The position numbers and the translations under genes are program-made. This document shows, in pieces, positions 29,069 through 63,876 of a stretch of DNA of 64,000 bases. How positions within the stretch are numbered: position 1 is the first letter of the stretch; every line of letters starts with the position of its first letter. Source of the DNA: Candidatus Iainarchaeum sp. (GTDB taxonomy: Archaea > Iainarchaeota > Iainarchaeia > Iainarchaeales > JAAZKV01); contig JAQVNZ010000001.1 in NCBI GenBank assembly GCA_028702895.1, forward strand, positions 36,235 through 100,234, in the 5' to 3' direction. The notes under the pieces were generated by a model. That model had not been told where the DNA came from. It ran no database searches and saw only the letters and a program-made list of their open reading frames with translations.

Positions 29069-29122
29069 AAAAACTAGTTGGTTAGAAGGGTTTTAAACTA
29101 ATTCGGATTTAATCTTTCATAA

Positions 29123-29533: not shown

Positions 29534-29571
29534 GTTTTTTATTTTTGCTTTTTTATTTTAAATAATTTTTT

Positions 29572-31358: not shown

Positions 31359-31757
31359 CTAGTATTTTTTTAAGGTTATTATTTTTGACAAATTTATTGA
31401 AAATTCTAGTTCATTAGTTATTATTTGAGAAAAACAATTTAGTTTTCCTGTTGCGTTTTGATCTTTTAAAATATAATTTGGTTTATCGCAAGAGAGTACT
31501 GTGTCATCAAATATTAGTGTGTGTAAGTCAGTTGCTTTTTGATTAATACAAGTTTCTATTTCAGGATTTGATTTTTGCCAGTTACAATCCTGTATGGATT
31601 GATTTAATATTATTTCATAATTAGTTAAAATTATTTTTGTATTAGTTATTTGATTACTATAATCTGTAATTGAATAATTATTATTAATTCCTATGAATAA
31701 TATTGTGATAATCGTTACACTAAGTACTACTAGTATGGATACAAATCCTTTTTTCAT
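31359..31757 (-). CDS. Pilin-like protein (N-terminal class III signal/TM), last gene of the pilus locus
   Basis: MKKGFVSILVVLSVTIITILFIG is a basic-Gly N-terminus plus hydrophobic helix. The 4-nt overlap with the upstream gene suggests coupling. Confidence 0.5.
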   Translation of the reverse strand: MKKGFVSILVVLSVTIITILFIGINNNYSITDYSNQITNTKIILTNYEIILNQSIQDCNWQKSNPEIETCINQKATDLHTLIFDDTVLSCDKPNYILKDQNATGKLNCFSQIITNELEFSINLSKIITLKKY

Positions 31758-32023
31758 TCAAATCCCTCGCAGATAATATTTTTTTTAAATGTTTGTGTTG
31801 TGACATTGTATAAAATTATTTTATTACAAAAAAGATTATTTTTATCTATGTTAGTGTGTGTGGCCTGATAATAAATTGAATTCGTTTGATTGCTTTGAAT
31901 ATTTGTTAAAAAATTATTATTTTGATTAGTGTATTGGTTGGTGTTTGTGCCAATTATAATTAGGGTGCTTAACAAAATAATTATTGTTAATATCATTTCT
32001 ATTGAAAAAATAAATCCTTTCAT
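31754..32023 (-). CDS. Pilin-like protein (class III signal-like N-terminus)
   Basis: It begins MKGFIFSIEMILTIIILLSTLIII. It has 4-nt overlaps with both neighbours. Confidence 0.5.
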   Translation of the reverse strand: MKGFIFSIEMILTIIILLSTLIIIGTNTNQYTNQNNNFLTNIQSNQTNSIYYQATHTNIDKNNLFCNKIILYNVTTQTFKKNIICEGFE

Positions 32024-32493
32024 TTACTCACCATTAATTTTATATTTTTTTTAGGATATCTACACGCGTTACCAGCCAAACAATTGTTTAAGTCATTAAA
32101 AGTTATTTCTTCTGTACAGGTGAATATTTCGTTTTCAATAACAATTATTTCTTGTTGGTTAGAATTAATTTCGTTAAATTTTACTTCGTTACCTATTGTA
32201 AGTTTTATTTTGTTATTAATTAAGCCAATATCTTTTTTTAATTGATTAATATCTGTTAACATTGTTTCATTTAATGTAAATGCTAGTGTGGTATCTCCTA
32301 ATTTACAAGCATACTTATTATTTGTTAGTGCAATAAAAGATGAATTTGCTTTTTGTGAAAGAGTATCAAATTGTATTGTTTCATTATTTGTATTATTTTT
32401 TATTTCAAAAGTATTTAATAATAATCCAAAAAAGGTTATGCAAAGAACCATTGCAAGCAAAAAATCAATTGAAAAAATTTGGCCTTTAATCAT
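32020..32493 (-). CDS. Pilin-like protein with a KGQ class III signal motif
   Basis: It begins MIKGQIFSIDFLLAMVLCITFFGLLL. The KG|Q motif followed by a hydrophobic helix is the archaeal prepilin pattern. Confidence 0.6.
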   Translation of the reverse strand: MIKGQIFSIDFLLAMVLCITFFGLLLNTFEIKNNTNNETIQFDTLSQKANSSFIALTNNKYACKLGDTTLAFTLNETMLTDINQLKKDIGLINNKIKLTIGNEVKFNEINSNQQEIIVIENEIFTCTEEITFNDLNNCLAGNACRYPKKNIKLMVSK

Positions 32494-32863
32494 TTTTAAT
32501 CACCAAATAATTATTTTCAATAAAAATATTTTTTTTATTTTGTATTGTTGCGCTAGTTTTAAAATTAGTGTCTTTTATTTCTAAATATAAATAGTTTTCA
32601 TCAAAACTTATTATTGGTAAAATTTTTTGGTCATCAAAATTTAGTTCTTTTATTTTTACTAAAATATTATAATCAAAATCTTCTAGTGCTTCACTAGCAA
32701 TTATCAGTGATGCGTAATTATTAGTATTTATTTTTAATTCATTTTCAATAGCAATTAATTTGTGGTTGTTTAATATTTCTCCAAAAATTATTGTTGTTGA
32801 ACTAATAAAAATAAGGAGTGCAATTATTGTTAATATTAAATCAATACTTATTTGGCCTTTCAT
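32486..32863 (-). CDS. Pilin-like protein with a KGQ class III signal motif
   Basis: It begins MKGQISIDLILTIIALLIFISS. It overlaps the downstream gene by 8 nt. Confidence 0.6.
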   Translation of the reverse strand: MKGQISIDLILTIIALLIFISSTTIIFGEILNNHKLIAIENELKINTNNYASLIIASEALEDFDYNILVKIKELNFDDQKILPIISFDENYLYLEIKDTNFKTSATIQNKKNIFIENNYLVIKND

Positions 32864-32898
32864 AAAGTATCATACCATTCTTTTCTTTTTAATTTTGT

Positions 32899-33264
32899 CT
32901 AATCTATTAATTCAATGTCTAATTTGTTAGATTTGTCATCAAATACATTAATTATAGTATTATTTGTGTCTAATCCAATTATTACATTTATTAAATATCT
33001 TTTAAAGAATTTTTTATCTGCTGTGCTTGGGAATGTACTCCCGTTTGGGTGTGAATGTAAACTACCAAGTATAGTATTATCTATTGGAATATTGTAAGTG
33101 TTAACACTAGAATAATCATCTCCGTTTAAAGTTGGTATTAATACTATTTCATTAATTTCCTTTGCTTCTTTGTCCCCGCTTAAAAAACATAAAAATTCTT
33201 TTGGATAATAATTTTTCGCTGATTGAATAACATCTTCTATTAAATTTTTTTTAATCTTCCACAT
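32899..33264 (-). CDS. Minimal JAMM/MPN+ metalloprotease (121 aa)
   Basis: The JAMM motif is complete: a Glu in EFLCFLSG, then HSHPNGSTFPSTAD (H-x-H-x7-S-x2-D). Confidence 0.8.
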   Translation of the reverse strand: MWKIKKNLIEDVIQSAKNYYPKEFLCFLSGDKEAKEINEIVLIPTLNGDDYSSVNTYNIPIDNTILGSLHSHPNGSTFPSTADKKFFKRYLINVIIGLDTNNTIINVFDDKSNKLDIELID

Positions 33265-33267
33265 AAA

Positions 33268-34443
33268 TTATATTAATTGGAAAAGATAGAAAAATAGGAC
33301 TGGTATGATTAAAAAACCTAGACAAGTACTTCGTTTTATTTTTGTTTGAATAGTTATTAGTCCTAATGCTGTTGAAAAAACTAATGCGATAAAACCAATT
33401 AATCCATTAAAAAAAATAACTAATATTATAATAAATATTATAATTATTTTTTCTAATAAATTTTTTTCTTGTAATTTCATAAAAAAATTATTTTTTGTTT
33501 TTGCGATTTTTTTAGATAAATAAATAGTTATTATTCCTGCGATTCCTGCGGATATTAATATTGTTGCGCAACCTAAAAAAATTGTTTGATCTGTTAAAAT
33601 AATTTTTTCTTTTAAAAATACCATTGCGCCGTTTCTTGTTTTTGATAAAAATAATAAAACAGGTATTGAAAATATAAAATTGCTCGTGTTAATACTTCCT
33701 AATAATACTAAATAATTTTTTGTTTTTATTTTTTGTCTAAATATTCTTATTATTGCAGCCGCTAAATTATTTCCTATTCCTGGAACAAATGCTACTATTG
33801 CGCCTCCAATAATTCCTGTTATTGCATCAATTGTTTTATTTTTTTCAATGTTAAAATTTGTTTGTTGTGTTTTTGTAATTGGTTTTTTTATTGTAGAATT
33901 TATTAGTGTTGAAATTCCAAAGTACCCGCTTATCAATGGGAATATTTGGTTAGTAAAAATCATTCCGTGTGTTGCTGAAATAATTATTATTATCATTGCG
34001 AGAATTTTTTTATTTCTAGTTTTTTCTGTTAGAATTAAAACGAGTGTGGAAAAAATTAGTATGATTGGAATAATTATTTCAAAATTAGTTGGAAAAAATT
34101 CTATGAATTTAATAAAAAATGGGAAACACATTATGGATACTATTGTGGCAATAATTCCCCCAAATACGGTTAAACTTATTGCTTCGTGTCCTTTTCCTTC
34201 TAAAAACATTTTGTGTCCGGGTAGTATTCCTTCAAAAGAACTTTCTCCTGCTGCCCCAATAAAAATGGTTGGAATAAAGTCTACAAAACTTTGTGTTGTT
34301 ACCATGCTTAATACAAATATTAGCGCTTCGTTTCCAAATAAGGGTGTTAGAAAAGCAATTTGAGTTATATTGTTGGTGTGTATTCCAGGTATTAATCCTG
34401 CGATGGTGCCCATTATTATTCCTAATATTAGATAAAGAATCAT
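33268..34443 (-). CDS. Polytopic membrane protein, TctA/DUF112-like
   Basis: It has about 10-11 TM segments. GLIPGIHTNNI and VAFVPGIGNNLAAAI resemble the repeated G.lPG(l/i)g motif of the TctA/DUF112 family as I recall it. The gap to the JAMM gene is 3 nt. Confidence 0.5.
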   Translation of the reverse strand: MILYLILGIIMGTIAGLIPGIHTNNITQIAFLTPLFGNEALIFVLSMVTTQSFVDFIPTIFIGAAGESSFEGILPGHKMFLEGKGHEAISLTVFGGIIATIVSIMCFPFFIKFIEFFPTNFEIIIPIILIFSTLVLILTEKTRNKKILAMIIIIISATHGMIFTNQIFPLISGYFGISTLINSTIKKPITKTQQTNFNIEKNKTIDAITGIIGGAIVAFVPGIGNNLAAAIIRIFRQKIKTKNYLVLLGSINTSNFIFSIPVLLFLSKTRNGAMVFLKEKIILTDQTIFLGCATILISAGIAGIITIYLSKKIAKTKNNFFMKLQEKNLLEKIIIIFIIILVIFFNGLIGFIALVFSTALGLITIQTKIKRSTCLGFLIIPVLFFYLFQLI

Positions 34444-34769
34444 TTTTTTATCACTTTTAGTGCTAATAATTCTATTTCGTTATTATATTGGGTAGTTTCA
34501 CCGTATACCTCTACCTTATCACCAATTTGTATTTCAAATTTTTTTGAATAAAATACTTTTATTTTTTCTTCGTTTTGTAGAATAAAAATTAGGGGTTCTT
34601 CACGTAGAATATAATCTACTCTTCCAATTACTATTCCTTTACTACCTATAGTTGAATGCATTTCGCTAATTGTTTTTTCCTTAAATTCTTCTTCGTAAAA
34701 TATTATGAAAACAAAAAGGCCAATAATTGTTATTAGAATACAAATTTGTATTAAATGTCTTTCTTGCAT
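34440..34769 (-). CDS. Membrane-anchored OB-fold-like protein
   Basis: An N-terminal TM (LIQICILITIIGLFVFIIF) is followed by a beta-rich segment (GIVIGRVDYILREEPLIFILQNEEKIKVFYSKKFEIQIGDKVEVYGETTQYNNEIELL). That segment resembles tRNA_anti-type OB folds. The call is weak. Confidence 0.4.
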   Translation of the reverse strand: MQERHLIQICILITIIGLFVFIIFYEEEFKEKTISEMHSTIGSKGIVIGRVDYILREEPLIFILQNEEKIKVFYSKKFEIQIGDKVEVYGETTQYNNEIELLALKVIKK

Positions 34770-34868
34770 TATACTATTTTATTATTTTTATTAAAAAGAA
34801 ATAGCTTTTTTTCGTTGATTGACGTTATTATTATGGATTGTTTATTTTTCGAATTTTTATTAATTTTT

Positions 34869-36785
34869 TCAAGGCTTACATTTTGTAAAGTTAGGTTGTT
34901 TTAAAGGTTGATTTTCAAGCGGGGAATATGAAAAAGCCCATGAACATTTAATTACTTTTGATACATTCCATTTGTTAATATCTTGATTAAACTGCGAGTC
35001 AGAAAACATTTGTTCCATGTTTGTTACGTTGATTGTATTCCAATCATTAATTGGGTGATTAAATTTCGAATGCCAAAACATAAATTTCATTGTTGTTACA
35101 TTGCGTGTGTTCCAGTTTTCGATTGGTTGGTTGAAGTCTGAATATGAAAACATGTTTTCCATTGTTGTTACGTTGCTTGTGTTCCAATTGCTAATGTCTT
35201 GATTGAATTTAGAATGGTCAAACATTGAAGCCATATTTGTTACGTTGCTTGTGTTCCAATCGCTAATATGTCCGTTGAATTGTGATTCATGAAACATTGC
35301 GTACATATTTGTTACTTTGCTTGTGTCCCAATTGTTTATATTTTGATTAAATTTTGAACCGTAAAACATTCCAAACATGTTTGTTACGTTGCGTGTATCC
35401 CAGTTATTTAGAGGGTAATTGTATGGTGAATATATGAACATATATTGCATATTTGTTACGTTGATTGTATTCCAATCATTAATTGGGTGATTAAATTTTG
35501 CTGCCCAAAACATGTTCTGCATATTTGTTACGCTGCTTGTATTCCAGTTATTTATTGGCTGGTTGAAATCTGAATATACAAACATTGCGAACATGTTTGT
35601 TACTTTGCTTGTGTTCCAATTACTAATATCTTGATTGAATTTAGAACTATTAAACATTTCACTCATCGTGGTTACGTTGCTTGTGTTCCAATTGCTAATA
35701 TCTTGATTAAATGTAGCGCCACCAAACATTGAAGCCATATTTGTTACGTTGCTTGTGTTCCAATTGCTTATGTTTCCGTTGAATTGAGAATTACTAAACA
35801 TCCCATTCATATTTGTTACATTGCCCGTATTCCAATTATTAATATTTTGATTAAATCGTGAATTAGCAAACATTTTTTCCATATTGGTAATATTCTTTGA
35901 GGCATCATCAAAAAAATCTGGACAAGAAACTTGTGTTAGAGTAGTGTTTGCAAACATGCTTCGTGCTGACGTTAATCCCGTAACCGAATTACTAACTGGT
36001 GTGTGAATATCTTTTAACATTTCCCCACTATTTTCAAAGGAGATTCTACTTGCTTTTCCTTTTAAAGAAATATTATAATCTCCTGGAGTGGGATAGGTTT
36101 TTATTTGTGTATCTCCAGGGGGTAAATTCACCCAACCCTGTCCTAATCCCCAGTCAACTTCCATTCCTTGAGCGCCATAAATAATAAATTGAAATTGTTC
36201 ATTATTTTTTGTAGTTTTTATTTGGAATGTAAATGGGGGTGTTGGTTTATCGGGGTCTATTAGGGGTTTTCCACATTTTCCTAGATAATTCGTATCTGTT
36301 CCTGCTTTTATAGCATAGCAACGATTATCATAAGTATTTCCGTCCAAACCACAAACCGGGATAGTGCCCGCGTTTAAACAATCGTCTTCTTCTGGTATTT
36401 CTGGATCGTCTGGCTCTGGTTCGCCAGTATAATTATTATTTAATATTATTTGCGAATTTTTAAAATTAGTAAATTTTCCTATTTTTTCTACTATTTTTTT
36501 TAAGTCAAAATAGTTATTATCTATTGTTGGGGGAATAGTTTGAACAAAAAATTTTGGTATTTCATTTTCTTCAACAAAAATATTTTGGATTATAACATTC
36601 TCGTTTTTTTGGTTTGATTGAACTAATAATTCACTTCGTATTAGCGTATATGCGTTTGTAACATTATATGTATTTAAAAAAAAGGATGATAAAATTATTG
36701 TAAATGTTATAATAACTAAAAGTATTATTAAACTTTCAAACGAAACTTGCCCTTTATTAAATATTTTTTTTTTCAATATAATCAA
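34869..36785 (-). CDS. Pilin-anchored surface protein: class III signal + Kazal-like domain + 13 DUF285/BspA-like repeats (putative adhesin)
   Basis: The N-terminus is KKIFNKGQVSFESLIILLVIITF. An acidic P/E linker follows, then a Kazal-like segment (CLNAGTIPVCGLDGNTYDNRCYAIKAGTDTNYLGKCG, nt 36273-36380). After that come 13 tandem 24-aa units with consensus MF..S.FNQ.I..WNTSNVTNM... The start is TTG, forming a TTGA overlap with the upstream gene. Confidence 0.75.
   Translation of the reverse strand: MIILKKKIFNKGQVSFESLIILLVIITFTIILSSFFLNTYNVTNAYTLIRSELLVQSNQKNENVIIQNIFVEENEIPKFFVQTIPPTIDNNYFDLKKIVEKIGKFTNFKNSQIILNNNYTGEPEPDDPEIPEEDDCLNAGTIPVCGLDGNTYDNRCYAIKAGTDTNYLGKCGKPLIDPDKPTPPFTFQIKTTKNNEQFQFIIYGAQGMEVDWGLGQGWVNLPPGDTQIKTYPTPGDYNISLKGKASRISFENSGEMLKDIHTPVSNSVTGLTSARSMFANTTLTQVSCPDFFDDASKNITNMEKMFANSRFNQNINNWNTGNVTNMNGMFSNSQFNGNISNWNTSNVTNMASMFGGATFNQDISNWNTSNVTTMSEMFNSSKFNQDISNWNTSKVTNMFAMFVYSDFNQPINNWNTSSVTNMQNMFWAAKFNHPINDWNTINVTNMQYMFIYSPYNYPLNNWDTRNVTNMFGMFYGSKFNQNINNWDTSKVTNMYAMFHESQFNGHISDWNTSNVTNMASMFDHSKFNQDISNWNTSNVTTMENMFSYSDFNQPIENWNTRNVTTMKFMFWHSKFNHPINDWNTINVTNMEQMFSDSQFNQDINKWNVSKVIKCSWAFSYSPLENQPLKQPNFTKCKP
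34938..35873 (-). repeat. Intragenic 72-nt (24-aa) tandem repeat array, 13 units, with a higher-order block duplication
   Basis: The units start at about aa 305 and run to aa 616 of the adhesin. Long near-identical DNA stretches recur at an offset of 432 nt (6 units), for example 35021-35080 versus 35453-35512. At protein level, units 2, 3, 5, 6 pair with units 9, 10, 11, 12. Confidence 0.85.
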
Positions 36786-37234
36786 CTACTTGTTATTGAA
36801 ATTTTATTAGAGTCTGTTTTTTCTATAACAATTGTTTTTATTCCATAATCAATAACATTTTCTGTACAATCAAGGGTTATTCCATTTCTTACCATAAATG
36901 TTTTTTTACAAATATTGTTTTCACAAAGATTAACATTTGTGTTATTGCCTGTTTTATTAATTTGTACTTCAAATTCAAAATTATTGGCACAGTTAATTTT
37001 TGTGTTATTTGGTATAAAAAGAGTTATTGTTTCTTTTGATCCTGTTCCCAATAAAGATATTTTATTAGTTATTTGCGTTAATTGTTGTGTTGCTAAATTA
37101 GCTTTTGAAATATTTTCAATATCTTCTATTATTCCTTGAGTATTTTCTATGATTGGTTTTGTTACTCCAAAAATATATATTATTAGTATTAATATTATGA
37201 AAATAAATTCTATTGTTGCTTGCCCTTTTTGCAT
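36782..37234 (-). CDS. Pilin-like protein with a KGQ class III signal motif (150 aa)
   Basis: It begins MQKGQATIEFIFIILILIIYIFG. The body is N/T-rich with 4 Cys. Confidence 0.6.
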   Translation of the reverse strand: MQKGQATIEFIFIILILIIYIFGVTKPIIENTQGIIEDIENISKANLATQQLTQITNKISLLGTGSKETITLFIPNNTKINCANNFEFEVQINKTGNNTNVNLCENNICKKTFMVRNGITLDCTENVIDYGIKTIVIEKTDSNKISITSS

Positions 37235-37242
37235 TCTTTCAC

Positions 37243-38334
37243 CTATATACTTAATATTAAGTTTATTATAAAATCTCCTAAAATAACACTTAGGATATAA
37301 CCTAAGAGTATTGTTGGAACAAACGGAATAGAATCTTTAATTAAAATAGTTTTTTCAATTAATCCTTGTTTTGATAATTTTTTTAATTCTTTTATTTCTT
37401 GTATTGTTAATCCGCATGCCCTCATTGAGGATATTATTTCTTTTTCTGAATTTAGCGTATTTTCTTTTATTTGTTTTATAATTTCCTTTAAACTTAATTT
37501 TTCTTTTATAATAACTTTTTTTCCTTTCCAAATTAGTGTTATTCCTGGTATCATTCCTTCTTTAAGATTTTTTATTAAAACTTTTTTTGACATTAAAATT
37601 TTCATTGAGGTCATTAGTTTTATTAATCCAAATAAAATAACTATGATTATTGTTAATGATAAAAGATTTTTAAAAAACATTTGATAATTTAAAAAAATTC
37701 CGATTATCATGCTTATGCTTGTTAATATAATTTTGTTTTTATTTAAAAAATTCCAAACAAAAAGAAAAATAAAAACTAAAAATATTTCTATAACGGTGTT
37801 TTGGATAAATAAATTTATTATAATATAACTTCCTGATAAAAAAAATGCTGTGTGTATTGCAATAATCGTATTTTTCTTCATGTCAAAAAATATTTTTTTT
37901 CTTTCTGTTTTATTATTTAATAATTTATATACTATGACAACTATCCCGTATGGCATGAATGCTATTAGTGAATATAAAAAAAGACTTATTGGAAATATGG
38001 GTAGGCTTGAATTTGTTAATAATCCAATTTTGATTAATGCGGGGGTGAACGGATTTAATGCGCCTAATGCCATGAATAATTTTACGTCTCCTCCAGCAAA
38101 AACTCCTAATTTCCATAATATCCAACCAAAAGAAAATCCAATACATAATCCAAGAAAAGAGTAGATTATTGGATAAATATTTAATTCAATTATTGATTGT
38201 ATTGCATAAATTGTTAGGCCAAGTATTGCTAATCCAAAATTTAATTTGTTTGGAACAATTCGTTCTTTTAAATCAGTGTATGTTGCGATTATTAATCCGA
38301 TAATGGAAATAATTATGGTTGTAATGAAAATCAT
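37243..38334 (-). CDS. Prepilin/preflagellin peptidase (A24 aspartyl protease; EppA/PibD/FlaK-like)
   Basis: Two catalytic Asp contexts are present: YTDLKERIVPN (D21) and FAGGDVKLFMALGA (D83, GxGD-like). The protein is multi-TM, with a soluble segment at about aa 246-334 and a terminal IPFVPTILLG. Confidence 0.8.
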   Translation of the reverse strand: MIFITTIIISIIGLIIATYTDLKERIVPNKLNFGLAILGLTIYAIQSIIELNIYPIIYSFLGLCIGFSFGWILWKLGVFAGGDVKLFMALGALNPFTPALIKIGLLTNSSLPIFPISLFLYSLIAFMPYGIVVIVYKLLNNKTERKKIFFDMKKNTIIAIHTAFFLSGSYIIINLFIQNTVIEIFLVFIFLFVWNFLNKNKIILTSISMIIGIFLNYQMFFKNLLSLTIIIVILFGLIKLMTSMKILMSKKVLIKNLKEGMIPGITLIWKGKKVIIKEKLSLKEIIKQIKENTLNSEKEIISSMRACGLTIQEIKELKKLSKQGLIEKTILIKDSIPFVPTILLGYILSVILGDFIINLILSI

Positions 38335-38468
38335 TTTTTATCATATAAGTTAATGTTTTCATGATTTAAAAAAATATGTTATTTTCTGATAATATTTTTA
38401 TTGTGTTATTTTATTTTTTGATTAATATTTTTTTGTTTTATATAAAATAATATATATTATTATTATTT

Positions 38469-38645
38469 TTATTGTAGGATATTTTCAATTAATCTTGCTC
38501 TTTCTGATAATAAGTCTGCTTGTGCAGTTAATGCTATTTGTCTTAGTGTTTCAACAACCATTGCTGCGCTTATTGCTAGCATTATTCCAAATGCAGCGGT
38601 TAGTAAATATTCAAATGCTACTTGTGCTTTTTCTTCTTTTAACAT
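38469..38645 (-). CDS. Mini-pilin (58 aa) with a class III signal (DUF361-like AQ..FEYLL), no globular head
   Basis: The hand-translated sequence is MLKEEKAQVAFEYLLTAAFGIMLAISAAMVVETLRQIALTAQADLLSERARLIENILQ. It is absent from the ORF track because it is shorter than 60 aa. Confidence 0.6.
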   Translation of the reverse strand: MLKEEKAQVAFEYLLTAAFGIMLAISAAMVVETLRQIALTAQADLLSERARLIENILQ

Positions 38646-38681
38646 TTTTTCATCCTTTCTAACTTTTTTTATTTAAAAAAA

Positions 38682-38963
38682 TTATGTGCAATCCCATTTT
38701 TCTCTTAAAATATATTGGTTTTTTTCACAACATATAGTTTGAGTTGCTCCGCCTTTATTAGTGTCATTAAGATAACATCCACAATCTAAAGTGTTTGAAT
38801 CTAGTGTTACACAAAGATAATTGTATGTGCTATTTGTTCCAGTATCTGTTCCTGTGCCTATTGCTTGTGAAACAAATATTATTACTACTGCTACTACAAG
38901 AATTACTGCTCCGATGATTAGTAAGTATTCTATGGATGTTTGTCCAGATTTTTTATCATTCAT
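38682..38963 (-). CDS. Short type IV pilin (93 aa), class III signal + Cys-rich head (7 Cys)
   Basis: MNDKKSGQTSIEYLLIIGAVILVVAVVIIFVS carries the Q..(I/V)EYLL pattern of Epd-type pilins as I recall it. The head is ...YLCVTLDSNTLDCGCYLNDTNKGGATQTICCEKNQ..WDC. Confidence 0.8.
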   Translation of the reverse strand: MNDKKSGQTSIEYLLIIGAVILVVAVVIIFVSQAIGTGTDTGTNSTYNYLCVTLDSNTLDCGCYLNDTNKGGATQTICCEKNQYILREKWDCT

Positions 38964-39038
38964 ATTATATATAACAATATTTTTGTATTTAAAGTTTTGT
39001 TATTTTTAAAATATTGTTTTATTATTTTTTAATTATTA

Positions 39039-39317
39039 TTAGGGTGTAATATTAAAGTCCTTGCATTTGTTTGGCCAACCTGTCATATTGGTTAGTGTGC
39101 ATTTATTATTTGCCCAATTCCCGCCTGTTAACATGCATTCTTTTTGACATTCTAGTATTAGTGTGGTGTCTCCAATTTTTTCATCATTTAATGAGTCGGT
39201 TCCACTACTTGTTACGCCTACCATTGAGATTACAACAATTGCTACTACTAGTATTGCTGCGCCCATTATTAGTAAGTATTCTACAGCACCTTGTGCGTTT
39301 TCTTTTTTATAATCCAT
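39039..39317 (-). CDS. Short type IV pilin (92 aa), class III signal + Cys-rich head (4 Cys)
   Basis: The N-terminus is MDYKKENAQGAVEYLLIMGAAILVVAIVVISMVG. The head is ECQKECMLTGGNWANNKCTLTNMTGWPNKC. Confidence 0.8.
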   Translation of the reverse strand: MDYKKENAQGAVEYLLIMGAAILVVAIVVISMVGVTSSGTDSLNDEKIGDTTLILECQKECMLTGGNWANNKCTLTNMTGWPNKCKDFNITP

Positions 39318-39372
39318 TACTAATAGTTTACTTTAGCACTATTTAAATGTTTTTTATTTTTAAAAAAAGTAA

Positions 39373-39397
39373 TTGAAAAGGCGAAAGGCCTTTTCAA
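39373..39397 (-). terminator. Perfect 10-bp hairpin plus T-run, 13 nt downstream of pilin gene 39410..39667
   Basis: TTGAAAAGGC-GAAAG-GCCTTTTCAA is conspicuously GC-rich for this DNA. On the minus-strand transcript it is followed by ..TTACTTTTTTT. Confidence 0.55.
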
Positions 39398-39409
39398 AAT
39401 TTAATCTAA

Positions 39410-39667
39410 TCAGTTGTATGATGTACAATCGTAGTTGCCGCTAGGTACTATTGTTCCACTACATGTTTGATTTATTGAATTCCAATCAAATTTTTGATTC
39501 AAACAATCAACTTGGCATTTTTGTAGTGTTGGTAATTGGTCTACGTCAGTTCCGTCTGTTGCTCCTGAAGTTACACTAACTAATGCAATTATTACAACTG
39601 CTACAACAAGTATTGCTGCTCCGATGATTAGTAAGTATTCTATTGCTCCTTGTCCTGTTCTATCCAT
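39410..39667 (-). CDS. Short type IV pilin (85 aa), class III signal + Cys-rich head; candidate major pilin
   Basis: The N-terminus is MDRTGQGAIEYLLIIGAAILVVAVVIIALVS. The head is KCQVDCLNQKFDWNSINQTCSG....NYDC. A strong SD (GGAGGGG) precedes it, a long upstream spacer separates it from the previous gene, and it has its own hairpin terminator. Confidence 0.8.
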   Translation of the reverse strand: MDRTGQGAIEYLLIIGAAILVVAVVIIALVSVTSGATDGTDVDQLPTLQKCQVDCLNQKFDWNSINQTCSGTIVPSGNYDCTSYN

Positions 39668-39840
39668 TTTTTCCCCTCCGTTAATTTTAACAAAAATTCT
39701 TATTCTATTAAAGATTTTATTATTTTTAAATCTATTCTTTGACTTTAAAATATTGTTTTTAATTTTTTTTGAATATTGTGCTATTATTTTTGCGTTTTAG
39801 CAGATATTATTTTTGTAAAAGTTTTATTGGTTAGTATCTT

Positions 39841-39978
39841 TTATTGATTAATATCTTTTATTGCTTGTGTTGCAGATTGTGCAGTTGTTTTAATATATAT
39901 TGAAACCGTTGTTACCACAAATATTGCGCCAACGATTATTAGCAAATATTCTAAACTTGTCTGAGCTTTTTCATCCAT
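39841..39978 (-). CDS. Mini-pilin (45 aa) with a class III signal, no head domain
   Basis: The hand-translated sequence is MDEKAQTSLEYLLIIVGAIFVVTTVSIYIKTTAQSATQAIKDINQ. Its ATG overlaps the stop of the platform gene (TAATG), which suggests coupling. It is absent from the ORF track. Confidence 0.6.
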   Translation of the reverse strand: MDEKAQTSLEYLLIIVGAIFVVTTVSIYIKTTAQSATQAIKDINQ

Positions 39979-40886
39979 TAAAAAACACCTAGTAACATTA
40001 AACTAATTAAATAATTTGTTGCATAATATGTTACAAATGCTATTAGTATTAGTATTGGGATATATATAATACTTTTTCCAAATTTACCTTCTCTTATTAT
40101 AGACATCATTATTCCTGATGCGATTACTTCTATTATTAAATATGCTTGGATTAATAATAACATAAAATTAGATACGCTGGTTGTGTTATTAGCACTTCCT
40201 CCGACTAATTGTGTTATTGTGATTTGTGAGAATAAATTCATTATAGCAGTTATTTCTCCAAATATTAATGGGGTTATTATTCCTCCTGCTGCAATCATGA
40301 ACATGAATTGCATTGTAGTATTCGCTTTTCTCTCTTCTTTTAATCTATATGATTCTCTAACATCATCTGAAATATCTTCTAGTATTCCTGATAAGCTTGC
40401 ACCGGTTTTTATTGAATCAAGTAATACTGTGATTGTTCGTTTTACTAATTTAGAGTCAATTCTTTCTGCAAATCCTCGTAGGGAAGTGTCAATATTTTCT
40501 CCTTCCTCTAATCTAATTAATGCGATTTGCATTTCGTCTGATAATCTACCATATCCTGCGATTACAACTTCTCGTAAAGCACTCTCATAAGTGTCTCCTG
40601 CTTTGAGCGTGTCGGCCATTTGTTTTAATGCATCACTAAAATTATATTCTATTGAATCAATTATTGATTCTTTTTTCATGTAAGGGTATCCTAACATTAG
40701 TATTAGTGTTGCTGAAGTAAACGCTACTGGGAGTAAAGTAATTTCTTTTAATATTAACATATTTAAAATTAATGTTATAAATGCTACAAATAGAGTTGTT
40801 GCTAGTGTTAAACTAGCCCATACTTTTGAATTATATGGTAATTTTGCAAATCTTACCCAATTATCATATTTTGTTATTATATCCAT
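39978..40886 (-). CDS. Pilus platform membrane protein, single T2SS-F domain (EpdJ/K, TadB/C-like)
   Basis: It has the T2SS-F cytoplasmic domain pattern (DALKQMADTLKAGDTYESALREVV...YGRLSDEMQIALIRLEEGENIDTSLRGFAERI) flanked by TM segments. Confidence 0.75.
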   Translation of the reverse strand: MDIITKYDNWVRFAKLPYNSKVWASLTLATTLFVAFITLILNMLILKEITLLPVAFTSATLILMLGYPYMKKESIIDSIEYNFSDALKQMADTLKAGDTYESALREVVIAGYGRLSDEMQIALIRLEEGENIDTSLRGFAERIDSKLVKRTITVLLDSIKTGASLSGILEDISDDVRESYRLKEERKANTTMQFMFMIAAGGIITPLIFGEITAIMNLFSQITITQLVGGSANNTTSVSNFMLLLIQAYLIIEVIASGIMMSIIREGKFGKSIIYIPILILIAFVTYYATNYLISLMLLGVF

Positions 40887-40891
40887 TTAAA

Positions 40892-41986
40892 TCACATTTT
40901 TGGTTGTGCTGCATAAACCATGTATATCATTATTCCAAATACAATTGGCATAAAAATAATATAAATAAAAAACATTACTTCTGGTGTTAATGGAATGTTT
41001 TTGAATAAATCTTCTCCGGTTGTGGCGATTGGAGAATTTCTAATTGATCCTAGTATCATTACTGCTACTGGTAAAACTATTCCTACAAAAATAAATATTA
41101 CTGAAAAAAAATTCATTTGCTGTGAAAAAATTCCTATTCGGTTTCTCATTTCGGATGAAACATCTTCTGCAATATCATTCATTGTTTCAGATAAATTTCC
41201 GCCTATTCGCATAGCTCTTAAAATATGGTTAATTGTTTTTCGTAGTGGCATACTCTGCGTTCTTAGCGCAGTGTGTTTTAATGCTGTTGTAGTATCTGCA
41301 CCTTCTTCAATTTCATTTATGGTTCTAGAAAATTCTTCGCTTAAAACACCATAATCATTAATTGCAATTGCTTGTATTGTTTTATATAATCCAATTCCTG
41401 CTTTTAATTCTGTTGCCATGTGTCTTAGTGCAAATGGTAGTTCAGTAGATATTTTTGCACCCCTGTTTTTTGCAAGGTTTTTTGGAATTGTTAAAATAAA
41501 TATTGTTGAAATTACCCACATGATAAATCCAAGTAAGATGGGGAGGGTGGCTGCAAACAAAAGATCTTGTAATAATATTCCTATAAAAAAAACTATTATT
41601 ATTGTTGTTAGTGCAATTATAAATCCTGCTGCACTTGCTAATGCTAAATATTGATTTGGAGAATATCTTAAATTTGCAGAGTATAAATAGTATCCTATTT
41701 CATTACTTAATGGAAAATTTTGTAAAAAGTTTTTTATAGGATTTAATATTTTTTTTAATTTTAAATAAATGTTTCCAAGTGTTTTTGTTAAATTTGATCC
41801 AAATTGGTCTAAATCTTCTTCACTATTTAAATCAATTTTAGAATAAGAATTATCTAGGATTATTCCTCTTAATTCTTTTAAACTAGTATTCGCGTCTTCT
41901 ACTTCTATTCCTTCGTCTCTATATTTTTTTTTCATTGTTTCAACGATTTTACTTACTTCTTCTTCGTTTATAGAACTATTTTTCAT
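40892..41986 (-). CDS. Pilus platform membrane protein, single T2SS-F domain (second subunit)
   Basis: LPFALRHMATELKAGIGLYKTIQAIA.NDYGVLSEEFSRTINEIEEGADTTTALKHTA.RT.S..LRKTI..I is a T2SS-F domain. TM segments flank it. Confidence 0.75.
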   Translation of the reverse strand: MKNSSINEEEVSKIVETMKKKYRDEGIEVEDANTSLKELRGIILDNSYSKIDLNSEEDLDQFGSNLTKTLGNIYLKLKKILNPIKNFLQNFPLSNEIGYYLYSANLRYSPNQYLALASAAGFIIALTTIIIVFFIGILLQDLLFAATLPILLGFIMWVISTIFILTIPKNLAKNRGAKISTELPFALRHMATELKAGIGLYKTIQAIAINDYGVLSEEFSRTINEIEEGADTTTALKHTALRTQSMPLRKTINHILRAMRIGGNLSETMNDIAEDVSSEMRNRIGIFSQQMNFFSVIFIFVGIVLPVAVMILGSIRNSPIATTGEDLFKNIPLTPEVMFFIYIIFMPIVFGIMIYMVYAAQPKM

Positions 41987-43647
41987 TATTTTTCACCAAA
42001 ATTTCTTTTGCTAATAAAATCTTGTGATAGTTTACTAACTTCTTTTAATTCGCGAATATTGTTTTCAACAAGATTTTCTATAAATTGTTTTCTTAAATAT
42101 AATTCGGCTTCAAGTTGATCTCTTGATAATCCTGTAAAATCTCTTAATTGACTTAAATAATTACTGTCAACTATTGTTCTTTCTAAATAATCTTTTACTG
42201 CGTCTCTTTGAAATAATGTTTGTGTTTTTGGGTTGCCTTCTATTCCTCCATATACTTCTGCGATCTCACTTATTCGTCTAATTGTTCCTTTCTTTTTATC
42301 ATGATATCTGTGTTCTACTATTATTATGTCAAGCCCAGATAACATTATTTTTGGAACATTCATTGGCGGGTTAGTTACTCGTACTATTGTTTCTTCTGGA
42401 GAATTAGCATGAACCGTTCCTAGACAACCATCATGCCCTGTATTAATAGCAGTAAATAACGTGAATGCTTCTTCGTGTCTTACTTCTCCAACTATTATTC
42501 TATCGGGTCTCATTCTCAAAGAATTTTTTGTTAAAATATCCATTTTTAATTCACCTGATCCTTCAAGTCCGGGTGGTCTAGCTTCTAATCTAATCCAATG
42601 TTTTAAGGGTAAATTTAATTCGGCCGTGTCTTCAATAGTAACTATTCTTTCTCTTTCTGGTATGAATGATGCTAGTACATTTAAGAGTGTAGTTTTTCCT
42701 GATCCTGTTCCACCACTAATAAGCATGTTCGCTGGTTTTGTTCCTAGTCCATCAACACTTACCCATAGGAATGCTGCTGCTTCGCTACTTAGTGTTCCCA
42801 TTCTAACTAAATCAATTATTGAATAAGGGTCTTTACGAAATTTTCTTATTGTTAGTGTTCCTCCACTAATACTTGCAGGGGGGATTGTGGCATTAATTCT
42901 ACTTCCATCAGTTAATCTTGCGTCTAATAAAGGCGCTGATACATCTACTCTTCTTCCAACTTCTCTAGCAATTTTATTTATTAAATCCTCTATTTCTTGT
43001 TCTGAAAAAAATTCTATGTTAGTTTGCATCATTTCAAATTCTCTATGAAAAACAAAAACAGGTTTTTTTGGCCCAACAATCATTATCTCTTCTAATTGAT
43101 CGTCTTTTATTAGGTCATCTATTAATCCATATCCAACCATTTCTCTTACAACTGCGTCAGCGTAAAATGATATTCTTGTTGGGGGAATATTTAGTGATGG
43201 ATTATTTCTTATGATATCTAATATTTTTTGTTTATAGATTATTCGTCTCTCATCATTATTTCTTATTCTAAATGGTGCAATACTAATTAGTCTTGTTGTT
43301 GCTTCTTTTATTGTATTAATTATTTTTCTTTCAGCGGAGGTGGGTCTTAGTGTTGGAACAAAATAATATTTTAGTGCTTTGCCAGGGATTTCATAAATAG
43401 TTGTTTTATCATATTTTTTTAATTCTATTTTTTTCTCTTTTTCTAATTCTTTTTCAACTTCTGTTTTTTCTTTTCCAGATGGTTCGATTTCTAATTTTTG
43501 ATCTATTTCGCTGTTAATTTGTTCTTCAAATTCTTTTAAATCTTCTTTTTTTATTTCTTTTGCAACAGTTTCTTCAATATCTTCTTCGTTTTTTATTGAT
43601 TGTGCTTTTGTACTTTTCATTAAGTCTTCTAAATAATCAGTTGCCAT
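41986..43647 (-). CDS. Pilus assembly ATPase (FlaI/PilB/TadA/EpdL-like)
   Basis: It contains LLDARLTDGSRINATIPP...GTLTIRKF, Walker A SGGTGSGKTT, IEDTAEL, RMRPDRIIVGEVRHEEA and GHDGCLGTVHAN. The N-terminal ~90 aa are acidic coiled coil. Confidence 0.85.
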   Translation of the reverse strand: MATDYLEDLMKSTKAQSIKNEEDIEETVAKEIKKEDLKEFEEQINSEIDQKLEIEPSGKEKTEVEKELEKEKKIELKKYDKTTIYEIPGKALKYYFVPTLRPTSAERKIINTIKEATTRLISIAPFRIRNNDERRIIYKQKILDIIRNNPSLNIPPTRISFYADAVVREMVGYGLIDDLIKDDQLEEIMIVGPKKPVFVFHREFEMMQTNIEFFSEQEIEDLINKIAREVGRRVDVSAPLLDARLTDGSRINATIPPASISGGTLTIRKFRKDPYSIIDLVRMGTLSSEAAAFLWVSVDGLGTKPANMLISGGTGSGKTTLLNVLASFIPERERIVTIEDTAELNLPLKHWIRLEARPPGLEGSGELKMDILTKNSLRMRPDRIIVGEVRHEEAFTLFTAINTGHDGCLGTVHANSPEETIVRVTNPPMNVPKIMLSGLDIIIVEHRYHDKKKGTIRRISEIAEVYGGIEGNPKTQTLFQRDAVKDYLERTIVDSNYLSQLRDFTGLSRDQLEAELYLRKQFIENLVENNIRELKEVSKLSQDFISKRNFGEK

Positions 43648-62917: not shown

Positions 62918-63097
62918 ATGAGTAATGTTTTATTAGAAGAAAAAGCACAAATTTCAGTAGAACTAATAATTGTCCTTGCGGCGGTTGTTGCAGTAGTTTT
63001 AGTTCTTGTAAGTCAGTTACAAGCAACATCTTCACAAGGAGCCCAAAAATTAGAAAAAACTGCTGGTGACGTGTTCAAAAAAATTGATGATATATGA
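62918..63097 (+). CDS. Mini-pilin (59 aa) with a class III signal (second pilin cluster)
   Basis: The hand-translated sequence is MSNVLLEEKAQISVELIIVLAAVVAVVLVLVSQLQATSSQGAQKLEKTAGDVFKKIDDI. It has the same AQ....E(Y/L)(L/I) design as the mini-pilins at 38469 and 39841. It forms an ATGA overlap with the next gene. Confidence 0.6.
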   Translation: MSNVLLEEKAQISVELIIVLAAVVAVVLVLVSQLQATSSQGAQKLEKTAGDVFKKIDDI

Positions 63098-63507
63098 ATT
63101 CAATTATGTGTACTAAGAAAAAAGGGCAAGTTTCGTTAGAATACTTGATTTTAATTGCTGCTTTTTTCTCAGCTTTATTAATAATAATTCCAACAATAAA
63201 TCTCATTGTAAATGATTTTTTGATAATGAATGATTCTTTATTATTAAAACAAATTTCTGAAAAAATTTCTGAACAAGATAAATTATTTGTTTTTTTAGGA
63301 GATGGATCTAGAAAAGAATTTGAATTTTTTTCAACAAAAGAAATTTTATTAAAAACAAGTGGAAAAAATTTTATTTTATCAAATTCAAAAACGAATCTTT
63401 CTGTTCTATTGTATTCTAATCAAATCACGAATGAAAAAAATTTCGATTCTAAATTTAAAATAATAATTGAAAAAATTAATGGTGAAACAAAAATATTATT
63501 TGAATGA
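63094..63507 (+). CDS. Pilin-like protein with a KGQ class III signal
   Basis: It begins MNSIMCTKKKGQVSLEYLILIAAFFSALLIIIP. Confidence 0.55.
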   Translation: MNSIMCTKKKGQVSLEYLILIAAFFSALLIIIPTINLIVNDFLIMNDSLLLKQISEKISEQDKLFVFLGDGSRKEFEFFSTKEILLKTSGKNFILSNSKTNLSVLLYSNQITNEKNFDSKFKIIIEKINGETKILFE

Positions 63508-63513
63508 ATTAAG

Positions 63514-63876
63514 TTAACAATTAGTATAAACAATAATTCGAATTTTTCTTTCAATCAATTTTTCGTCTAATAATATTGTTTCGCTTGAAATGGCATTTTT
63601 ATTGCATTCTTTTCCTATTAATATTTTTTTATTATCTATTTGTATTTGAAAATTATCAAAAAATAATTTTGCGTCTTGTATCATTTCATTTTCATTTATT
63701 GAATTTTTACTCCAGACTCTTAGTAAATCATTTTCTTGTTGAATGATTATTAAATCGCTAAATGATTCTTGTTTTGGAAATGAAATACTAAGTAATACTA
63801 TTGAAAACATTAATATTGCAATTATTGCTTCTAAAGAAATTAAAAAACCTTTTTGAGAATTAGTTTTATTATTCAA
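63514..63876 (-). CDS. Pilin-like protein (class III signal-like; TTG start)
   Basis: It begins ..NNKTNSQKGFLISLEAIIAILMFSIVLLSIS. The TTG start is preceded by GGGTG. Confidence 0.5.
   Translation of the reverse strand: MNNKTNSQKGFLISLEAIIAILMFSIVLLSISFPKQESFSDLIIIQQENDLLRVWSKNSINENEMIQDAKLFFDNFQIQIDNKKILIGKECNKNAISSETILLDEKLIERKIRIIVYTNC

Follow-up and report, generated by a model that had tools for sequence, protein, structure and literature searches.

Gene organization of the locus

We analysed a 64,000-nucleotide stretch of DNA (hereafter, the window) from Candidatus Iainarchaeum sp. (GenBank assembly GCA_028702895.1, contig JAQVNZ010000001.1, positions 36,235 to 100,234), in which genes for a type IV pilus, together with genes for an OB-fold protein, a TctA-like membrane protein and a JAMM protease, form an unbroken minus-strand run from position 43647 down to position 31359. 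A preliminary description, made from the letters alone, had presented this run as a 20-gene Epd/Tad-like pilus supercluster of a probable DPANN archaeon. The open reading frame (ORF) map of the window placed all substantial ORFs between 43647 and 31359 on the minus strand and each listed element at its position, and the host, a member of the Iainarchaeota, is indeed a DPANN archaeon. The number of co-directional genes, in contrast, was 18, which is also what the description's own list adds up to, and the intergenic gaps of the cluster contained no additional ORF of at least 15 amino acids with a plausible product.

In gene order, the run encodes a 553-amino-acid ATPase, two platform proteins of 364 and 302 amino acids, five short pilins (45, 85, 92, 93 and 58 amino acids), a 363-amino-acid prepilin peptidase, pilin-like proteins of 150 and 638 amino acids, a 109-amino-acid protein with a transmembrane (TM) helix and an OB fold, a 391-amino-acid TctA-like protein, a 121-amino-acid JAMM protein and four further pilin-like proteins (125, 157, 89 and 132 amino acids). 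From the ATPase gene to the last gene, successive spacings were -1, 5, -1, 173, 92, 75, 36, 134, 8, -4, 99, -4, 3, 35, -8, -4 and -4 nucleotides. The tiny gaps and overlaps first noted for the whole run were thus found among the machinery genes (-1 to 8 nucleotides) and among the last four, minor-pilin genes (-8 to -4 nucleotides), but not at the short pilin genes (36-173 nucleotides), 5' of the peptidase gene (134 nucleotides) or 5' of the OB gene (99 nucleotides).

Many internal genes had a GGTGA- or GGAGG-like Shine-Dalgarno (SD) motif 5-10 nucleotides 5' of the ATG, which would fit what is expected of internal genes in archaeal operons. Since the genes on either side, encoding threonyl-tRNA synthetase (ThrRS; 43784-45550) and ABCE1 (29572-31323), also lie on the minus strand, strand alone does not define the operon. 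A single intergenic site of terminator-like type was predicted on the minus strand of the cluster, a hairpin at 39373..39397 just 3' of the 85-amino-acid pilin gene, with a 10-bp stem containing four GC pairs and followed by the T-run TTACTTTTTT, which could act as a terminator or attenuator. A bacterial promoter scan returned 89 sites against a shuffled expectation of 89 and was uninformative for this AT-rich archaeon.

The assembly machinery is Epd-like

Profile searches supported all of the machinery calls made in the preliminary description. The predicted EpdL/CpaF(TadA)-like assembly ATPase (41986..43647, on the minus strand like every gene of the cluster described below) matched Pfam T2SSE at 2.8e-44, and its Walker A (GGTGSGKTT), Walker B (DRIIVGEVR) and His box (GHDGCLGTVHANS) motifs could be read from the sequence. 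Its best relative in the PDB was CpaF (1.7e-76), followed by Archaeoglobus GspE (5e-66) and FlaI (2e-60), and it reached the NCBIfam FlaI model only far below its cut-off. The nearest relatives from other groups than the Iainarchaeota, at 47-56% identity, came from metagenome-assembled genomes (MAGs) labelled Hydrothermarchaeota, Thermococcus and Methanobacteriota, and from many labelled Methanobrevibacter.

The two platform proteins are encoded by separate genes, each with a single T2SSF domain, and are paralogues of each other (26% identity, 2e-14). The first, TadB/EpdJ-like (40892..41986), matched T2SSF at 2.9e-20 in one stretch (residues 186-312); its gene overlaps the ATPase stop by 1 nucleotide and is preceded by a GGTGA SD-like motif. 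The second, TadC/EpdK-like (39978..40886), matched at 1.3e-15, again in one stretch (residues 87-208), and matched the C-terminal half of the NCBIfam ArlJ/FlaJ model at 2.6e-22, below the cut-off. The split platform had been likened from the outset to bacterial TadB/TadC and Methanococcus EpdJ/EpdK, and this parallel is drawn in the literature, where EpdL is described as working with two platform paralogues, EpdJ and EpdK, an arrangement "reminiscent of" TadB/TadC (PMC4371748).

The predicted prepilin peptidase (37243..38334) is of the long archaeal, EppA-like form. It matched Peptidase_A24 (1.3e-15) as well as the archaeal C-terminal families Arc_PepC_II (1.1e-9) and Arc_PepC (3.4e-8), and it aligned with the NCBIfam EppA model over its full length (residues 5-352), at 36 bits against a cut-off of 450 bits. 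The catalytic aspartate D21 and the GGD motif at residues 81-83 are present, together with about 8-10 hydrophobic segments.

Among archaeal type IV pili, Makarova and colleagues (2016, PMC4858521) defined a "clade 1", found in methanococci, methanobacteria and thermococci, which has its own long, nine-TM EppA peptidase and corresponds to the Epd pilus of Methanococcus maripaludis. A recent preprint (10.64898/2026.04.22.720090) describes a "System 1" characterized by two platform genes, with DPANN archaea among its hosts. By its gene content, the window locus is such a clade 1/System 1 pilus, Epd-like and Tad-like, and thus of a known kind already reported in DPANN archaea: a split platform lies beside one ATPase, the pilins carry Gln at +1 and Glu at +5, and the small pilins have no globular domain. 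The long EppA type of the peptidase and the clade-1 membership of the ATPase are only indicated by these comparisons, the nearest relatives of the ATPase outside the phylum including methanobacterial and thermococcal MAGs, which are clade-1 lineages. The Epd/Tad-like label was nevertheless well chosen, given the split platform, the long EppA-like peptidase, pilins with +1 Gln, +5 Glu and +6 Tyr, and CpaF as the best solved relative of the ATPase.

With the M. maripaludis Epd system, the locus shares one ATPase with two single-domain platforms, a long Arc_PepC peptidase, the +1 Gln/+5 Glu signature, very small pilins and several minor pilins, one of them with an adhesin-like module. It differs in that all genes form one run, whereas epdJKL and the major pilin gene of M. 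maripaludis lie at separate loci (PMC10133366, PMC4858521), in that OB and TctA-like genes stand inside the operon with JAMM and PARCEL additions, and in that the NCBIfam EppA and FlaI matches are far below cut-off.

Bacterial Flp pilins carry the motif G/XXXXEY. The likeness to bacterial Tad/Flp systems extends from the CpaF-like ATPase and split platform to such G/XXXXEY pilins with E5 and Y6, a peptidase without a methyltransferase domain and larger pseudopilins after the peptidase. An archaeal host, Gln at +1 and the archaeal C-terminal domains of the peptidase set the locus apart from them, and in profile searches none of the 18 products matched the secretin RcpA, TadZ/CpaE, TadD or TadG families. 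Judged by its components, the locus is therefore Tad-like in its working and not a member of the bacterial system.

Pilins and class III signals

We scanned every ORF start of the window with a FlaFind-like regular expression for class III signals and counted 11 signal proteins in the cluster, consistently with the earlier estimate of at least 11. The expression picked ten of them; the eleventh, the 93-amino-acid pilin with SG/QTSIEYLL (here and below, a slash marks the predicted cleavage site), was missed solely because of its rule for position -2. Gln occupies +1 in nine of the 11, and +5 is Glu in seven and Asp in one. EppA substrates in Methanococcus are marked by the combination of Gln at +1 with Glu at +5 (PMC4371748).

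All five short pilins, whose Q...EYLL signal had been noticed at first reading, share the N-terminus [GA]/QxxxEYLL, with Gln at +1, Glu at +5 and Tyr at +6. Four of them matched the Class_IIIsignal family (PF04021) with E-values of 1e-4 to 1e-6, two of them passing the gathering cut-off and two falling narrowly short of it. The first is a Flp-like mini-pilin of 45 amino acids (39841..39978; MDEKA/QTSLEYLL), which consists of the helix only, with no globular domain and no Cys, and matched PF04021 at 1.2e-4 (22.4 bits against a cut-off of 23.7 bits) as well as the regular expression. The 85-amino-acid pilin (39410..39667; MDRTG/QGAIEYLL; PF04021 1.3e-4, 22.3 bits, just below cut-off) has a four-Cys tail, and its gene has an upstream gap of its own (173 nucleotides), the strongest SD-like motif of the cluster (GGAGGGG before the ATG) and the hairpin and T-run after its stop. 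The 92-amino-acid pilin (39039..39317; ...ENA/QGAVEYLL) also carries a four-Cys tail and exceeded the gathering cut-off (4.1e-5), as did the 93-amino-acid pilin (38682..38963; ...KKSG/QTSIEYLL; 1.4e-6), which has a six-Cys tail and a weak Flp_Fap match (0.05). The fifth, a helix-only Flp-like mini-pilin of 58 amino acids (38469..38645; MLKEEKA/QVAFEYLL), had no Pfam match and was assigned by its N-terminus; with 65-74% identity in the close relatives L003-L010 and L027, it is the best-conserved pilin. The 85-amino-acid protein, by its upstream region, SD motif and hairpin, and the 58-amino-acid protein, by its conservation, are the candidates for the major pilin.

The remaining signal proteins are larger and resemble minor pilins. 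The 150-amino-acid protein (36782..37234; MQKG/QATIEF) matched the regular expression and, weakly, PF04021 (5e-3), and virtually every Iainarchaeota locus with a peptidase gene has a member of its family 3' of that gene. At the distal end, putative minor pilins of 125 (32486..32863; MKG/QISIDL), 157 (32020..32493; MIKG/QIFSIDF), 89 (31754..32023; MKG/FIFSIEM) and 132 (31359..31757; MKKG/FVSILV) amino acids were all picked by the regular expression. The 125-amino-acid family gave matches in 31 loci, which are partly cross-matches to other pilin-like genes, and the same N-terminus recurs in two divergent loci (L088 and L091). The 157-amino-acid gene overlaps its predecessor by 8 nucleotides, has a GGTGA SD-like motif and belongs to a family found in 14 loci. 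The two last genes each overlap the preceding one by 4 nucleotides and were found in five loci each; the 89-amino-acid protein is fast-evolving, with positional equivalents starting RG/VIF in L091 and HG/FLF in L088, and the 132-amino-acid gene is the last before ABCE1.

A machinery that mainly displays or secretes class-III-signal proteins, without building a long pilus, seems to us very improbable. Such use of type IV filament systems, which functionalize class-III-signal binding proteins, has been proposed (10.64898/2026.04.22.720090), the ATPase matches the bindosome BasE model weakly and below cut-off, and one class III protein of the cluster does carry a large non-pilin module. Profile searches detected, however, no substrate-binding-protein domain in any of the 11 signal proteins, the ATPase is nearer to CpaF than to other solved relatives, and five minimal Flp-like pilins followed by overlapping minor-pilin genes are a hallmark of filament systems.

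In the rest of the window, the regular expression gave three spurious-looking matches and a separate pilin-like trio at 62.9-63.9 kb, adjoining a gene for an M50 intramembrane metalloprotease (62095-62829). The trio comprises a 59-amino-acid mini-pilin (62918..63097, plus strand; ...EEKA/QISVELII; PF04021 8.9e-4), a 137-amino-acid pilin-like protein (63094..63507, plus strand; ...KKKG/QVSLEYLIL; PF04021 8.8e-7, above cut-off) and a possible 120-amino-acid pilin-like protein (63514..63876, minus strand; ...SQKG/FLISLEAII) picked by the regular expression only, with no Pfam match. The first two, with an EppA-type +1 Gln/+5 Glu signal, are probable extra substrates of the cluster peptidase. A Peptidase M50 gene was one single-insertion result of the Methanococcus transformation screen (PMC10133366).

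A minor pilin extended by an adhesin-like module

The pilin-anchored repeat protein of the preliminary description is present at 34869..36785. It is a 638-amino-acid protein with a class III signal, a pilin domain of about 110 amino acids, an acidic, proline-containing linker, Kazal-like and PKD-like segments (weak matches, 1.8e-3 and 4.7e-3) and 13 PARCEL/DUF285 repeats of 24 amino acids (DUF285 3e-180; PARCEL repeat model TIGR02167 1.2e-52), with 24 N-x-S/T sequons. The repeats run in 24-residue phase from residue 318 to 606 and show the F..FNQ.I..WNTS.VT.M..MF signature expected of repeats of about 24-26 residues. Orthologues of the pilin part in 35 related loci measure 102-147 amino acids, with the exception of two (184 amino acids in L038 and 317 amino acids in L026). 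As judged from these comparisons, the 638-amino-acid protein is a lineage-specific extension of, or fusion to, a conserved minor pilin of about 110 amino acids, and the fusion would place a repeat adhesin on the pilus. PARCEL/DUF285 repeats also occur in surface proteins of Mycoplasma and Listeria, which differ in having a lipoprotein or Sec signal, whereas the window protein is anchored by a class III signal and a minor-pilin domain.

This fusion is the best support for the host-attachment role first suggested for the apparatus; the episymbiosis on which that suggestion leaned is not established for the phylum, and attachment to a host is an inference. For pili of another DPANN cluster ("cluster 2", Nanohaloarchaeota and others), a part in the interaction with the host has been proposed (Hamm et al. 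2024, PMC11291902), and their loci resemble the window locus in pairing a CpaF-like ATPase with a TadC-like platform. The window locus differs from these in belonging to a different DPANN cluster and in lacking coiled-coil sigma-1-like proteins, and the OB/TctA block is not described there.

The OB, TctA-like and JAMM block

Between the peptidase-proximal and the distal minor-pilin genes lie three genes that the preliminary description had listed correctly and left uninterpreted, although they are the informative part of the locus. The first (34440..34769) encodes a predicted membrane-anchored OB-fold protein of 109 amino acids, for which AlphaFold2 returned a TM helix (residues 3-24) followed by a five-stranded OB barrel (predicted local distance difference test, pLDDT, 91.8). 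The best Foldseek matches, with E-values of 2e-5 to 1e-4, were STN1 of the CST complex, RPA32 and the anticodon-binding OB domains of AsnRS and LysRS. Orthologues carry PF01336, which the window protein itself matches only at 0.011. Because acidic residues follow the TM helix, consistently across the family, and the N-terminus is slightly positive, the positive-inside rule points to an N-in/C-out topology, and the OB domain is probably extracellular.

The second gene (33268..34443) overlaps the first by 4 nucleotides and encodes a polytopic TctA-like membrane protein of 391 amino acids, a short archaeal form that covers the whole PF01970 model (1e-34). We found 402 representative relatives at E<=1e-30, and a 99%-identical protein, with the same downstream genes, in the Logan assemblies SRR8925826 and SRR34068990. 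The AlphaFold2 model (pLDDT 88.5) consists of helices only, several of them short, and among the invariant residues are two PGI..N(N) motifs that resemble each other (residues 19-25 and 221-226). Since the protein had no sequence match and no significant fold match in the PDB (best E 0.036, TM-score <0.25), the model does not separate a channel from a solute transporter. Profile searches detected no TctB- or TctC-like product in the cluster, so that the locus does not encode a tripartite TctABC system; archaea have been reported to be without TctB and TctC (PMC10133366).

The third gene (32899..33264), 3 nucleotides after the TctA-like gene, encodes a predicted stand-alone cytoplasmic JAMM metalloprotease of 121 amino acids (Prok-JAB 9.6e-10). 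It matched AfJAMM/AF2198 (1oi0, 1r5x) over its full length (1.1e-13), is of the same size, and retains the zinc-site motif E...HSHPx7Sx2D, read as HSHPNGSTFPSTAD with the upstream Glu. AfJAMM is a solved stand-alone JAMM protein to which we know of no assigned function; by analogy only, the JAB-domain protein RadC is encoded by a competence-regulon gene in some bacteria. The JAMM gene adjoins the TctA-like gene in 22 ATPase-centred loci and in L088 and L091. We considered JAMM as a general partner of TctA and rejected this, as the genes have other neighbours in Archaeoglobi and in a Hodarchaeaceae MAG, and the gene after TctA in L090 does not encode a JAMM protein. Given these other neighbours elsewhere, the adjacency is specific to the Iainarchaeota, and within them it is very stable. 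The JAMM protein could process a component of the system, or its gene could be a passenger.

Conservation of the locus and of the block

Searching one genome per species for the ATPase gave 80 loci, the top 46 or so of which came nearly all from MAGs labelled Candidatus Iainarchaeum, Diapherotrites or archaeon, at 54-84% identity, and included the complete AR10 genome. We compared synteny by tblastn and iterated hidden Markov model searches of all 18 products against these loci. Many related MAGs had the full order: the order ThrRS, 18 cluster genes, ABCE1 was complete in L003-L008 and L027, and recognisable versions of the cluster persisted in much more divergent members, including the metagenomic contig L088. 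Since synteny is conserved in dozens of genomes, the cluster is not a chance run, nor is it a peculiarity of one genome: it is the standard pilus locus of this DPANN phylum. For a phylum-standard locus of the published System 1 class, the word supercluster overstated the case.

Within these loci, the OB-TctA pair lay inside the pilus operon, at the same position between minor-pilin genes, in about 25 of the roughly 33 Iainarchaeota loci with enough sequence past the peptidase, and these 25 or so span 55-84% ATPase identity. The common order was peptidase, the 150-amino-acid family, the short form of the eleventh gene (638 amino acids in the window), an optional 4-TM protein of about 190 amino acids, OB, TctA, JAMM, an optional phosphoglycerate mutase and the minor pilins. 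L091 keeps the distal half without ATPase, platform or peptidase genes, namely the 4-TM protein, OB, TctA, JAMM, the mutase and four class III proteins (with the N-termini KGQISIEF, KGQLLTIDF, RGVIFTTD and KGGMYG). In L090 and L092, the OB-TctA pair stands by itself with overlapping genes, as in Methanococcus, and the L090 OB protein aligned end to end with the window OB family (hhalign probability 98.8%, E 1e-16).

Ten Methanobrevibacter loci presented a TctA-like gene immediately upstream of a clade-1 ATPase gene and a platform gene, and their TctA-like protein aligns with the window protein over its full length at 27.5% identity (E 5e-37). These compact TctA-like-ATPase-platform units were found in some of the rumen and gut Methanobrevibacter MAGs (L069:8419-12491, with a single T2SSF gene after the ATPase, and L059-L062, L065, L066, L068, L070 and L075). 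The unit was absent from at least seven Methanobacteriales loci with enough upstream sequence, three of Methanobrevibacter (L067, L073, L079) and four of Methanorudis/Methanovirga (L056, L074, L076, L080).

The 4-TM protein, absent from the window, measures about 180-200 amino acids and is encoded directly 5' of the OB gene in deeper lineages (L013:7402-7995, L019:16700-17299, L044:17738-18343, L046:17761-18330, L091:8074-8619). It has a small conserved C-terminal domain with the motif ...SD...AVVE..[FY]DL.S...G...V...KG..V.., had no Pfam match in the L091 annotation, and may be a further component of the module. Also absent from the window is the mutase-type gene (Metalloenzyme with iPGM_N or PhosphMutase), seen at L012:13097-14665, L088:10566-12080 and L091:10907-12121 and as ORFs of about 510-535 amino acids in L019 and L021.

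The ATPase gene itself varies among relatives. In the AR10 genome (L046:9731-12886), it is an ORF of 1051 amino acids with a LAGLIDADG-type intein inserted in the His box at GHDG/CLGTVHANS, where the slash marks the insertion point, and about 1.3 kb of extra spacing between ATPase and platform genes also occurs in L011, L038-L045, L055, L063 and L072, more than a dozen related loci. The window allele lacks the intein, and the one cysteine in it sits at the intein insertion point.

A proposed role in adhesion and DNA uptake

In M. maripaludis JJ, two adjacent genes, MMJJ_13020 (a single-TM OB protein) and MMJJ_13030 (TctA-like, of 11 TM segments), are each essential for transformation and can be complemented, and the same screens found epdJ, epdK, epdL, eppA and epd pilin genes to be needed for natural transformation as well (Fonseca et al. 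2023, PMC10133366). In Methanoculleus thermophilus, too, a TctA-like homologue is essential for transformation, and the same authors suggest that the TctA-like protein is the DNA transporter so far missing in archaea (PMC10133366). The window pair resembles the Methanococcus pair in belonging to the same two Pfam families, in having one TM helix and an OB fold followed by a TctA-like protein in the same order and adjacency, and in occurring in an organism with an Epd-type pilus. The Methanococcus pair, in contrast, lies away from the pilus genes, whereas here it is in the pilus operon and followed by JAMM.

Two independent co-localisations with pilus genes, in Iainarchaeota and in Methanobrevibacter, together with Methanococcus genetics, make it likely that OB and TctA-like proteins are functionally linked to the pilus system. 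Because the pair matches the transformation-essential pair of Methanococcus, DNA uptake is at least as likely a function of the locus as host attachment. We therefore favour, with a probability of roughly 55%, the reading that the locus encodes a combined adhesion and DNA-capture/import machine, DNA uptake being the part that we infer.

The machine might work as follows. The EppA-like peptidase would act on at least 11 local prepilins, the motifs of which are observed, by cutting off short [K/x][G/A]/Q leaders. By analogy with known members of the families, the CpaF/EpdL-like ATPase would act on a heterodimeric TadB/TadC-like platform and polymerise at least one of the five Flp-like pilins into a thin filament, and the six larger pilin-like proteins may serve as minor or tip pilins, for priming or at the tip, one of them presenting an adhesin through its extension of Kazal-like and PKD-like segments and 13 PARCEL repeats. 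The pilus might then bind a surface or DNA, nucleic acid might be received at the membrane by the OB protein, and its passage might require the TctA-like protein. Imported DNA could be a source of nucleotides as well as genes for an archaeon with a reduced genome. That the OB protein receives pilus-delivered DNA and that the TctA-like protein is required for import is a tentative part of this scheme, which we rate somewhat short of even odds. Its fullest form, in which the locus would be a self-contained archaeal competence machine with an Epd-type pilus, four dedicated minor pilins, an OB receptor, a TctA-like translocation part and JAMM, we put forward as a possibility and with more doubt than belief.

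In its logic, such a machine would resemble the ComG/ComEA/ComEC competence system, in which a filament with minor pilins, an anchored extracellular nucleic-acid binder and a polytopic protein are likewise encoded together. The analogy is one of logic only: there is no homology, an OB fold stands in place of the helix-hairpin-helix of ComEA and a TctA-like protein in place of ComEC, and the window showed neither DprA nor ComFA.

Several observations weigh against DNA import through this block. Bacterial TctA proteins are carboxylate transporters, and the PGI..N(N) motifs and short helices of the window model look more like those of a solute transporter than of a wide pore. The expectation that a DNA-binding OB ectodomain would be basic was not borne out, its net charge ranging from -10 to +5 across the family, with -3 in the window, that is, about neutral to acidic. 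TctA-like genes of other archaea were found with neither a pilus nor an OB neighbour (L083, L084, L089), and the block is missing from five Iainarchaeota pilus loci (L033, L034, L036, L022, L038), in three of which (L033, L034, L036) the minor-pilin genes are contiguous. AfJAMM-type genes in two Archaeoglobaceae genomes follow an aconitase-family gene, whereas the Iainarchaeota gene follows TctA. The run also takes up housekeeping passengers: a phosphoglycerate mutase gene separates JAMM from the minor pilins in L012, L019, L021, L088 and L091, and ThrRS and ABCE1 lie at the flanks. The kinship of the window pair to MMJJ_13020/13030 would follow from family, architecture and gene order only. 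In Methanococcus too, direct DNA transport is a hypothesis (PMC10133366), and the text of that paper does not report on the piliation of OB/TctA mutants, the strings "piliat" and "pilus assembly" having 0 occurrences.

Some of these observations are what one would expect if the locus encoded an Epd-like filament for adhesion only, to surfaces, other cells or a host, with OB, TctA-like and JAMM genes as unrelated transport and proteolysis passengers in compact genomes of frozen gene order. The variable presence of the block, the many archaeal TctA-like genes without pilus neighbours, the carboxylate-transporter family of bacterial TctA and the housekeeping genes in the same strand run all agree with this, as do the PARCEL/DUF285 module fused to a minor pilin and the role of the Epd pilus of M. 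maripaludis as an adhesion organelle (PMC4371748). Passengers would not be expected, however, to keep one place between pilin-like genes in about 25 loci as divergent as 55% in their ATPase, to remain beside four minor pilins where the ATPase half is gone, or to meet the same ATPase class again, independently, in Methanobrevibacter. The cluster moreover lacks a TctB/TctC partner, and Methanococcus genetics connect the Epd pilus as well as the OB/TctA pair with a single phenotype. We thus consider a purely adhesive role unlikely.

The close linkage may alternatively reflect pilus biogenesis, with OB, the TctA-like protein and perhaps JAMM serving, for example, as an anchor, as a chaperone or modifier of pilins, or in energy coupling; the transformation defect would then be secondary and no DNA would pass through TctA. 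Tight operonic linkage to pilin genes and the position of TctA directly before ATPase and platform genes in Methanobrevibacter are compatible with such a role, and so are the non-basic OB ectodomain, the all-helical TctA-like model with its short helices and transporter-like rather than pore-like motifs, and the absence of piliation results for the Methanococcus mutants from the text of PMC10133366. On the other hand, the best fold matches of the OB domain and its family model PF01336 point to nucleic-acid binding, OB-TctA pairs and lone TctA genes occur far from pilus genes, and a published 11-gene Epd cluster with EpdJKL explains piliation without either protein (PMC4371748; 10.64898/2026.04.22.720090), which makes a role confined to biogenesis improbable in our view. 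The combined adhesion and DNA-uptake machine remains the reading that we favour.

To our knowledge, archaea are without ComEC, and the Epd pilus and the OB/TctA-like pair, which came out of a transposon screen in Methanococcus, are the only genetic leads to how DNA passes the archaeal membrane. The window and its relatives lend comparative support to a place of this pair in the pilus system: across a whole DPANN phylum it forms part of the pilus operon, it accompanies four minor pilins where the motor genes are gone, and it has a TctA-like counterpart beside the same ATPase class in Methanobrevibacter. They also provide a compact candidate gene set, including JAMM and, in relatives, the 4-TM protein, which is testable in genetically tractable methanogens. 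DNA scavenging has been proposed for ultrasmall bacteria of the candidate phyla radiation, and the default reading of DPANN pili would shift from host attachment to attachment and/or DNA scavenging. If the locus were a competence machine, this would be the first operon-level definition of an archaeal DNA-import apparatus, and reduced-genome DPANN archaea would routinely import DNA for nucleotides and genes; if one of the other explanations held, the locus would be a well-preserved example of a known pilus class.

In the papers searched, we found no co-localisation of the OB/TctA module with pilus genes. The main text of Makarova et al. 2016 mentions no TctA, JAB or OB fold, the preprint 10.64898/2026.04.22.720090 no TctA, and PMC10133366 discusses neither gene neighbourhoods nor DPANN archaea; no paper combining TctA, JAMM and archaea was found, and TctA-like proteins and natural transformation were combined only in the Fonseca paper and its preprint. 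The integration of the transformation gene pair into one operon with JAMM and four minor pilins is thus undescribed in the literature searched, whereas the pilus class itself is known.

Other features of the window

A second T2SSE-family ATPase of 508 amino acids (22983-24509, plus strand; Pfam 7.8e-33) is encoded between the genes for a CCA-adding enzyme and TYW3, with no platform or pilin neighbour. Its nearest NCBIfam models were FlaI and TadA, below cut-off, and its identity as PINA was ruled out by a score of 19 bits against a cut-off of 800 bits. In M. maripaludis, an orphan VirB11-like ATPase has been discussed as a possible retraction motor (PMC4371748).

Beside the cluster, the order ABCE1, NUDIX, Pelota, Hjc-type resolvase and ELP3-like radical SAM (27652-31323 and 18615-20663) is kept in relatives, with a Rad50-like gene farther downstream. 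The tRNA at 21301-21389 (plus strand, 89 nucleotides; Rfam 43 bits) was not reported by ARAGORN and may contain an intron, as archaeal genes of this kind often do. The remaining window encodes informational housekeeping functions, namely ProRS, Nre, RFC, topoisomerase, CDC48 and NFACT.

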